12,483 nucleotides of DNA from the IMG/VR virus record IMGVR_UViG_2563366928_000007; one strand, given 5' to 3'. The notes beneath the pieces are model-generated. The model was given only the letters and a program-made list of their open reading frames with translations, was not told where the DNA came from and searched no databases. The stretch comes from a virus (taxonomy: Duplodnaviria; Heunggongvirae; Uroviricota; Caudoviricetes). Every line of letters begins with the position of its first letter. The first letter of the stretch is position 1. The translations under genes and the position numbers were made by a program. Positions 1 to 1,852 of the stretch are shown piece by piece.

Positions 1-357
1 CTGCTTCATGGAGAGGAGCAATTTGTCTCAGCCGATGCCGGCTACCAAGGAGCGCCACAGCGCGAGGAGCTGGCCGAGGTGGATGTGGACTGGCTGATCG
101 CCGAGCGTCCCGGCAAGGTAAAAACCTTGAAGCAGCATCCGCGCAAGAACAAAACGGCCATCAACATCGAATACATGAAAGCCAGCATCCGTGCCAAGGT
201 AGAGCACCCGTTTCGTATCATCAAGCGGCAGTTCGGCTTCGTGAAAGCCAGATACAAGGGGCTGCTGAAAAACGATAACCAACTGGCGATGTTATTCACC
301 CTGGCCAACCTGTTTCGGGTGGACCAAATGATACGTCAGTGGGAGAGATCTCACTAA
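1..357 (+). CDS. insH: IS5 family transposase InsH, C-terminal 118 codons (5'-partial, truncated by window edge)
   Basis: Open frame 1 from the window start to TAA at 355-357; the ORF-track protein 79-357 is in the same frame. Protein-level recognition of the InsH C-terminus. Confidence 0.92.
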
Positions 358-487
358 AAACTGGGGATAACGCCTTAAATGGCGAAGAAACGGTCTAAAT
401 AGGCTGATTCAAGGCATTTACGGGAGAAAAAATCGGCTCAAACATGAAGAAATGAAATGACTGAGTCAGCCGAGAAGAATTTCCCCG

Positions 488-503
488 CTTATTCGCACCT
501 TCC
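488..503. repeat. IS5 16-bp terminal inverted repeat (CTTATTCGCACCTTCC) marking the element boundary; followed by CTAG (504-507), the expected IS5 target tetranucleotide
   Basis: Exact reverse complement of the IS5 terminal sequence GGAAGGTGCGAATAAG. IS5 inserts at YTAR and duplicates 4 bp (established knowledge). Confidence 0.85.
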
Positions 504-1852
504 CTAGTGAACTTGCAAAACTGGAAAAACTAAAGAGTCAGTATTCAAAGGAAGAATATAATAATCTTATCGCTCAAATAAATGAGCGTTATAAAGATCC
601 AAAGCAACCAAAGGCGAAAGGTTATTCGGATGATGCTGCCCAACGAATGATTGATCATCTGAATCAACAGAATGCGTTACTAAGTTCACAAACTGAATTA
701 ACCGTTAAATTAAGTTCCTCTGAACAGGAACTGGTTAAGTGGCGTCAGCAGATTGCCGACCTGGAGTCACGACCGTCATCGAAATTAACCAAGGATCAGA
801 AATCGCTTCTCTTACACCGGGAAGAAATAACCGCGTTGATGGAGAAAAATGTTGCGATTGAAAAAAATAACAGGCTAATCAAGGAATCCGCCGAAATAGC
901 TGCATGGCGTGATTCATTGCAGGCTTCGATTGATAATCGTCAACAGGGGTATGATATTCAGATTGCTGGTTATGGGGTTGGCGATAAAAATCAGCAACGC
1001 CAGCAGGAATTACTGCGGATTGAACGTGAATATAACAATCAGCGTCTGCAACTTGAACGTGACTATGCAGATAAATCCCGTGGGATGTCAAATCATGTTT
1101 TTCAGGAGAAAATGCAGGCTCTGAATGATGCTCTGGAACGAGAAAAAGAAATTGTCAGACAGAAAAACGAGCAGCTCGATATTCAGGCAGGAGACTGGGT
1201 TAGTGGTGCCTCCCAGGGATTCAATAACTGGCTGGATGACACTAAAGATATCAGTGAGCAGATAAAATCAACCACGACTCAGATGTTTGATGGAATGACC
1301 GATGCGCTGGGTGATTTTGTCACGACAGGCAAAGCAAATTTTCGTTCTTTCGCTACTTCCGTGATTTCGGATCTTAGTCGAATAGCATTAAAGGCTTCAA
1401 TTACTGGGATTTTCGACAGCATTAGTAACAGTTCTTCTGGGGGGATTTTAGGAACTATCGGGAGTGCTATTAGTAAATTTATTCCGAATGCAAAGGGCGG
1501 TGTTTATGAGTCTCCGTCATTGAACACGTATTCGAACGGTATTTATGATTCCCCGCAATTTTTTGCTTTTGCAAGAGGGGCTGGTGTTTTTGGTGAGGCT
1601 GGTCCGGAAGCCATTATGCCATTAACACGAACTTCCGATGGTTCTCTTGGTGTCAGAGCTGTTAATAGTAAAAGTGGTAATGGAGGCGGAGATATTACCT
1701 ATGCCCCTGTATACCAAATCACTATTCAAAATGACGGCCAGAATGGAGAGATTGGCCCTCAGGCAATAAAAGCACTTATGGGGATGGTTGATCAGCGGGT
1801 GCAGGGCAATCTGTTAAATATGCGACGTGATGGGGGAATGTTAAGTGGCTAA
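504..1852 (+). pseudogene. Tail tape measure protein (lambda gpH-like), 3' fragment; gene interrupted by the IS5 insertion
   Basis: The reading frame is open, with no stop, from the IS5 boundary (codons from 506) through to TAA at 1850-1852. The product is coiled-coil-like and Q/E/K/R-rich, then Gly/Ser-rich, typical of a tape measure C-terminus. Its position immediately upstream of M-L-K-I-J and its stop overlapping the M start match lambda H. The ORF track gives an ATG-initiated remnant at 647-1852 (401 aa). Confidence 0.78.

Follow-up and report, generated by a model that had tools for sequence, protein, structure and literature searches.

Siphovirus tails cannot be assembled without tape measure proteins of the kind represented by lambda gpH, which start and template the polymerisation of the tail tube; gpH itself has 853 amino acids. 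Interruption of prophage genes by insertion sequences is well known from Escherichia coli. In the Rac prophage of K-12 the lomR gene is interrupted by IS5, and the O157 genome papers describe many IS629 insertions in prophage genes.

IS5 inserts into targets of the consensus Py-T-A-Pu, which it duplicates, and by far the commonest of these targets is CTAG, a tetranucleotide that is under-represented in bacterial genomes (PMC5493358).

The locus analysed here is a stretch of 12,483 nucleotides, in the following called the window, which starts inside an insertion sequence (IS) and continues through the end of a tape measure gene into a lambdoid tail module. The arrangement is very probably the result of a simple and recent transposition of an IS5-group (IS5/ISKpn26) element into the only CTAG of the tape measure gene of a Rac-type lambdoid E. 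coli prophage, which left no full-length protein.

The insertion and its source scaffold

The window had previously been interpreted from its letters alone. This sequence-only reading claimed the right end of an IS5 element, with the terminal repeat ending at 503 and CTAG at 504-507, and each of its coordinates proved correct. Its label 'IS5' held at the level of the IS5 group, as indicated by the DDE_Tnp_1 transposase and the terminal repeats, but not at a finer level, where the nearest copies are annotated as ISKpn26. Positions 1-503 are 99.8% identical (1 mismatch) to the IS copy found at the same place in E. coli SCU-316, which carries the RefSeq label 'IS5-like element ISKpn26 family transposase'. 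The identity to a canonical IS5 copy (strain 144) is 97.0%, and to a second IS variant, also labelled ISKpn26 (OW1E2, GPEC548, H1), it is approximately 91%. By these identities, 'IS5' is correct as a group name and ISKpn26 is the nearest named relative, the fine label being a naming matter.

The C-terminal 118 amino acids of the transposase, encoded in frame 1 and ending in ...RQWERSH before the stop, matched PF01609 DDE_Tnp_1 (E 3.3e-16, profile positions 76-200 of 200). The remainder of the transposase gene falls in a gap of the source scaffold, and the transposase and tape measure genes are co-directional. The 16-bp terminal repeats of the IS5 group, GGAAGGTGCGAAYAAG, are present at both ends of the element, and the two ends are complementary at 15 of the 16 positions. 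The coordinates of all features are collected in Table 1.

Table 1. Features of the interrupted locus, in window coordinates unless the source scaffold locus L005 is named
Feature	Position	Strand	Details or basis
IS5-group insertion sequence, right-hand 503 nt	1..503	+	~1195 nt when whole
IS transposase gene, 3' end (last 118 codons and stop)	1..357	+	translation; Pfam DDE_Tnp_1
Right terminal inverted repeat CTTATTCGCACCTTCC	488..503	+	sequence
CTAG target-site duplication, right copy	504..507	+	4 bp
Tail tape measure gene, 3' fragment	506..1852	+	codons 630-1077 of 1077 and stop
gpM-like minor tail protein gene	1845..2183	+	Pfam Phage_min_tail E 1e-31; WP_000024051.1 in relatives
Tail-tip genes L, K, I and J, apparently intact	2183..7709	+	ORF list; lengths and Pfam families match relatives with intact genes
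Individual tail-tip genes	L 2183-2881; K 2887-3630; I ends 4169; J 4230-7709	+	ORF list
Left terminal inverted repeat GGAAGGTGCGAACAAG	L005 8683-8698, outside the window		source scaffold
CTAG target-site duplication, left copy	L005 8679-8682		source scaffold
Tape measure gene, 5' fragment	L005 6794-8710 (gene call, 638 aa)		Pfam TMP_2 E 5e-81

The source scaffold was located through the exact product of a 401-aa ORF. The window is an exact match to NCBI scaffold KE136710.1 (GCA_000407865.1), and the locus fetched from it, called L005, is identical to the window from position 9355 through the locus end (11,852 bases). A run of 580 N occupies L005 8775-9354, inside the IS, and the first base of the window follows directly after it. 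The window begins within the IS because the draft scaffold has this N-gap there; its left edge is an assembly artefact and no biological boundary. As scaffolded, the IS consists of 92 nt, 580 N and 503 nt (1175 nt), a total in which the gap length is only estimated; closed genomes with an element at this site have copies of 1195-1196 nt.

To the left of the gap L005 reads ...CAGCAGAGAG CTAG GGAAGGTGCGAACAAG..., that is, tape measure coding sequence, CTAG and the left repeat of the IS. The 4-bp YTAR target duplication is thus present, with CTAG on both sides of the IS and a single CTAG at this place in the intact allele. According to the earlier interpretation, the left end of the IS, another CTAG and, in frame with the 3' fragment, the gene's 5' part should be located beyond the window. 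All three were found in L005, where 629 same-frame tape measure codons occupy 6794-8682; the possibility that the sequence to the left of the IS does not code for tape measure protein is thereby removed.

The right junction had no exact match in the collection of species-representative genomes, and no complete E. coli genome in the collection combines the exact IS variant of the window with its prophage haplotype. The same junction was found in six metagenome or draft contigs, which begin inside the right end of the IS and run on into the tape measure gene (99.3-100% identity to the window). The interrupted allele, or recurrences of the same event, occurs in other samples.

The open frame next to the IS end had been claimed to continue into the C-terminus of the tape measure protein, and it does. 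The frame from 506 (AGT GAA CTT ...) is open to the stop at 1850-1852, and its 448-residue product contains the Pfam domains TMP_4 (E 5e-25) and Tape_meas_lam_C (E 1e-26). The first ATG, GTG or TTG in this frame is the ATG at 647, which starts the 401-aa ORF and is not preceded by a clear ribosome-binding site. On the other side of the IS, the 638-aa product of the 5' fragment is made up of the 629 tape measure codons and nine IS-encoded codons (REGANKFLI), which are followed by a stop.

The uninterrupted gene was rebuilt in silico by joining L005 6794-8682 to window 508-1852, with the IS and one CTAG removed. The excision product is a 3234-nt ORF of 1077 codons without internal stop. The rebuilt 1077-aa protein is identical to that of the intact TUM14771 allele, from which the gene differs by one synonymous nucleotide (1 nt in 1349 for the 3' fragment), and it differs in one residue from the tape measure protein of GN06156. 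Since both flanks belong to the same gene and excision restores an intact ORF, the proposal that the IS splits the tape measure gene is confirmed. In the window's genome the tape measure ORF is not continuous but broken after codon 629 of 1077, and the gene is a pseudogene in two pieces. A second tape measure gene, which would have spoken against the earlier interpretation, was found neither in the 10 kb upstream nor in the 12 kb of the window. The two fragments encode the same residues as intact alleles and decay has not begun, which makes the insertion a recent one. The G+C content of the tape measure gene is 45% over the whole gene, versus 52% for the other tail-module sequence (1853-12483).

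Very probably, then, an IS5-group element transposed into the single CTAG, duplicating 4 bp. The gene was thereby split after codon 629 of 1077, the 5' fragment ending nine IS codons beyond the junction and the 3' fragment (506-1852) being left without a start codon of its own before ATG 647. Lacking the full-length tape measure protein, the prophage would form no tails unless the IS was excised precisely or the gene was supplied by another phage.

Two structural alternatives have to be weighed against this simple insertion. The IS could mark a deletion or rearrangement in which the tape measure gene lost its 5' part and the tube and chaperone genes may have disappeared as well. Such a deletion is seen in SCU-316, which has an identical right junction and an IS identical to that of the window at 502 of 503 positions, yet 3859 bp are missing on its left side; moreover, the source assembly of the window has its gap inside the IS. 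For the window's genome this course of events is nevertheless very improbable. The contig on the left-hand side of the gap finishes with tape measure codons 1-629 followed by CTAG and the left IS end, and further upstream the source scaffold still has the tube gene, ydaY and the small ORF. Moreover, the two flanks fit together without fault into an uninterrupted ORF, and the 1175 nt of the scaffolded IS fit a single copy. The hint from SCU-316 that a simple insertion might be the wrong explanation was therefore rejected for this genome on account of the intact left flank.

The scaffold gap takes up the middle of the IS, and the link across it depends on the assembler's scaffolding. As IS5-group elements are multi-copy repeats and the gap is located exactly there, contigs ending in IS sequence might have been wrongly scaffolded into an intact gene. 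We give this artefact a minimal chance, because both tape measure-CTAG-IS junctions are read contiguously within contigs, independent metagenome assemblies show the same right junction, and closed, long-read genomes have the same site occupied.

The prophage and its tail module

Positions 504-12483 of the window are 99.9% identical to the tail module of GN06156. From the left, the order in the GN06156 prophage is ttcA-intR-xisR-ralR-recT-recE-racC-kilR-sieB-racR-ydaS/T/U/V, continued by the lysis genes, trkG, terminase, portal, P22-like capsid and tail, and the end adjoins sitABCD, uspF and ompN. Judged from such close relatives, which are integrated beside ttcA, the prophage of the window appears to be of the full-length Rac type. 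Kinship with Rac is also evident in K-12 ynaA, which matches nt 1-935 of the tape measure gene, and in a ydaY homologue located upstream.

L005 and its relatives share the gene order terminator, tube, ydaY, small ORF, tape measure, M, L, K, I, J, and the lengths of the gene products in the 10 kb upstream and in the 12-kb window are the same as in the relatives. Many sequenced lambdoid phages have M-J genes with 93-95% identity to these. The tape measure gene was detected in 1096 of 5426 complete genomes, and 693 of the 5426 hold at least 80% of it in one place.

Some gene boundaries in the module depend on the gene caller. The GTG start of gpM (1845) overlaps the end of the tape measure gene, and some gene calls use an alternative ATG at 1887, the product being 112 aa or 98 aa long (98 in L006 and others). 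The longest ORFs of K (C40 peptidase/JAB, 2887-3630) and I (tail assembly, 3528-4169) overlap by about 100 nt, and the start of I is disputed among gene callers (200, 180 or 213 aa). At 8435-10816 the window has a side tail fibre gene in the form of a single 793-aa ORF. The same region of GN06156 is annotated as a partial N-terminal pseudogene and a separate 'head spike fiber domain' gene; this discrepancy may be an annotation difference or a frameshift in GN06156. In relatives, the iron/manganese transporter locus sitABCD is situated just past the tail-fibre region (L003 20537-23984, L004 20793-24242), before uspF and ompN. The prophage thus abuts or carries a known fitness locus, beyond window position 12483.

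The sequence-only reading also suspected aberrant expression of the M-L-K-I-J operon. Along the same line, the IS end might, outside the lytic cycle, drive or modulate transcription of M-L-K-I-J and of the tape measure gene's 3' fragment. Operons next to IS5 can be activated by it: fucAO is switched on via a fusion promoter that uses the transposase promoter, by read-through across the element (PMC11894529). In the window the transposase gene points toward the tail genes, which makes read-through conceivable. We nevertheless consider such an effect unlikely, and nothing that was computed supports it. A crude sigma-70 consensus scan of positions 1-2300 found no promoter facing outward from the right end of the IS, with no outward-facing site between 300 and 650. 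The five sigma-70-like sites in 1-2300 correspond to the chance level (3.5 +/- 1.9 expected), and this promoter and terminator scan as a whole gave hits at chance level only. Furthermore, other genomes carry elements of either orientation in this CTAG, a finding that speaks against selection for an effect that depends on orientation. As gpM starts overlapping or just after the tape measure stop, the loss of translation through the 3' fragment might lower the expression of M, but this is speculation.

Recurrent insertion and decay of the gene

The intact 3234-nt gene contains 45 YTAR sites, exactly one of which is a CTAG (nt 1886-1889; L002 6001-6004), and the whole window holds only three CTAGs. 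The position of the IS is explained by the preference of IS5 for YTAR, and above all for CTAG, which is rare in E. coli DNA. Eight complete E. coli genomes have an IS5-group element at exactly this CTAG, four of them in the orientation seen in the window (+; SCU-316, OW1E2, GPEC548 and FDAARGOS_1249) and the other four in the opposite orientation (-; 19KM1803, H1, ECSC054 and GDSC2239PM). The IS copies at the shared CTAG represent at least three sequence variants, and the host tape measure haplotypes differ from the window by 3 to 30 nt across the 1349-nt 3' part. From the variant copies and the differing haplotypes we infer several independent insertions into one tetranucleotide. The single CTAG of the gene is thus a recurrent IS5-group target, a point that is only mildly new. 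Because the target is recurrent, the insertion is unsafe as a clonal marker unless the orientation and the variant of the IS are checked.

Repeated insertion at the CTAG might also be favoured by selection: it would disarm the virions and keep the prophage with its cargo (e.g. sitABCD, recET, toxin genes), and precise excision of IS5 could make it a reversible off-switch for tails. We regard this as decidedly unlikely.

Relatives of the prophage showed other insertions and further losses. In SCU-316 (L001 5289-6507), where the right junction is the same, the left side of the IS abuts a CTAG containing the stop codon of the tail terminator gene. Between the two CTAGs the tube gene, ydaY, the small ORF and the 5' tape measure portion are missing, a deletion that fits IS-IS recombination or an IS-mediated adjacent deletion. 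In K-12 strains the gene is reduced to its first 935 nt (ynaA, 98.8% identical). In FDAARGOS_1249 (L016 1107-7919) the tape measure gene is in three pieces; the IS at the CTAG has in turn been invaded by an IS3-family element, and another IS5-family element, in reverse orientation, is located downstream.

The same gene has been hit at other positions. In X14-3 (L015 5258-6460) an IS occupies a polymorphic tetranucleotide, CTAG in that strain but CTGG at window positions 761-764, and in Z1323CEC0006 (L017 4305-5508) the IS lies within the 5' third, where its target is a TTAG. Three metagenome or draft contigs with the same 401-aa 3' ORF (L007 1-62, L013 1-123, L014 1-59) were initially candidates for a different truncation at the IS5 site. 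This was rejected, as the sequence upstream of CAGAGAGCTAG is in each case the end of an IS3-family element, IS1203-like by complete-genome matches, with the junction 8-11 nt upstream of window position 504. Elements of two IS families have therefore landed here no more than about 10 nt apart.

Insertions were also observed in strains with an intact tape measure gene: GN06156 (L024 26416-29083) has ISEc31 in the portal (DUF4055) gene, and in strain 144 (L003 14944-18518) the side tail fibre gene is the one that was hit, by IS5 at a CTAA. The same prophage is disabled at different genes in different strains. Among these alleles, that of the window illustrates, in clean and recent form, how prophage decay begins. 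The 3.9-kb IS-flanked deletion of SCU-316, the nested IS of FDAARGOS_1249 and the 935-nt remnant of K-12 represent later steps in the decay of the same gene.

Consequence for tails and comparison with known systems

After the split, the N-terminal 629 residues are without the part that contains TMP_4 and the lambda-type C-terminal domain, and production of a functional tape measure protein from the split gene seems very unlikely. Restart at ATG 647 could yield a 401-aa C-terminal fragment. Without full-length tape measure protein this prophage copy should be unable to assemble tails; judged by the known essential role of tape measure proteins, it should be tail-defective. Precise excision of the IS, or recombination with or complementation from another lambdoid prophage, could restore the gene or the tails.

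For annotation, the gene should be called a two-piece pseudogene and the prophage scored as unlikely to make tailed virions; for equivalent alleles of other strains, the RefSeq annotation already gives pseudogene fragments on either side of an IS5-like transposase. Beyond annotation the finding matters little. It is an ordinary disruption of a prophage structural gene by an IS, a decay route that is already known, and our literature search found no paper on this particular insertion.

In its structure the insertion resembles other IS5/ISKpn26 insertions in E. coli, with 16-bp repeats, a DDE_Tnp_1 transposase and a 4-bp CTAG duplication; where copies at this site are complete, they measure about 1195 bp. 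No mechanistic difference from these insertions is apparent, and the copy in the window is only a sequence variant. It is also comparable to the lambdoid prophages of E. coli O157, in which an IS insertion in a structural gene makes the prophage defective and leaves other modules intact. Unlike the O157 cases with IS629, another IS family and another prophage lineage are involved here, and one rare tetranucleotide explains the repeated hits.

With K-12 Rac the prophage shares the family as well as the decay of tail genes via IS elements and deletions, and K-12 ynaA, also named tmpR, is a tape measure remnant of cryptic Rac. However, K-12 has lost most of its structural genes by deletion, whereas the prophage of the window retains the whole tail module, in which only the tape measure gene was struck, by a fresh insertion without further decay. 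The protein itself is like lambda gpH in having the Tape_meas_lam_C domain and in the order of its genes (chaperone genes, tape measure, M-L-K-I-J). It differs from gpH in its greater length (1077 aa), in its TMP_2-type N-terminal region and in the interruption of its gene in this prophage.
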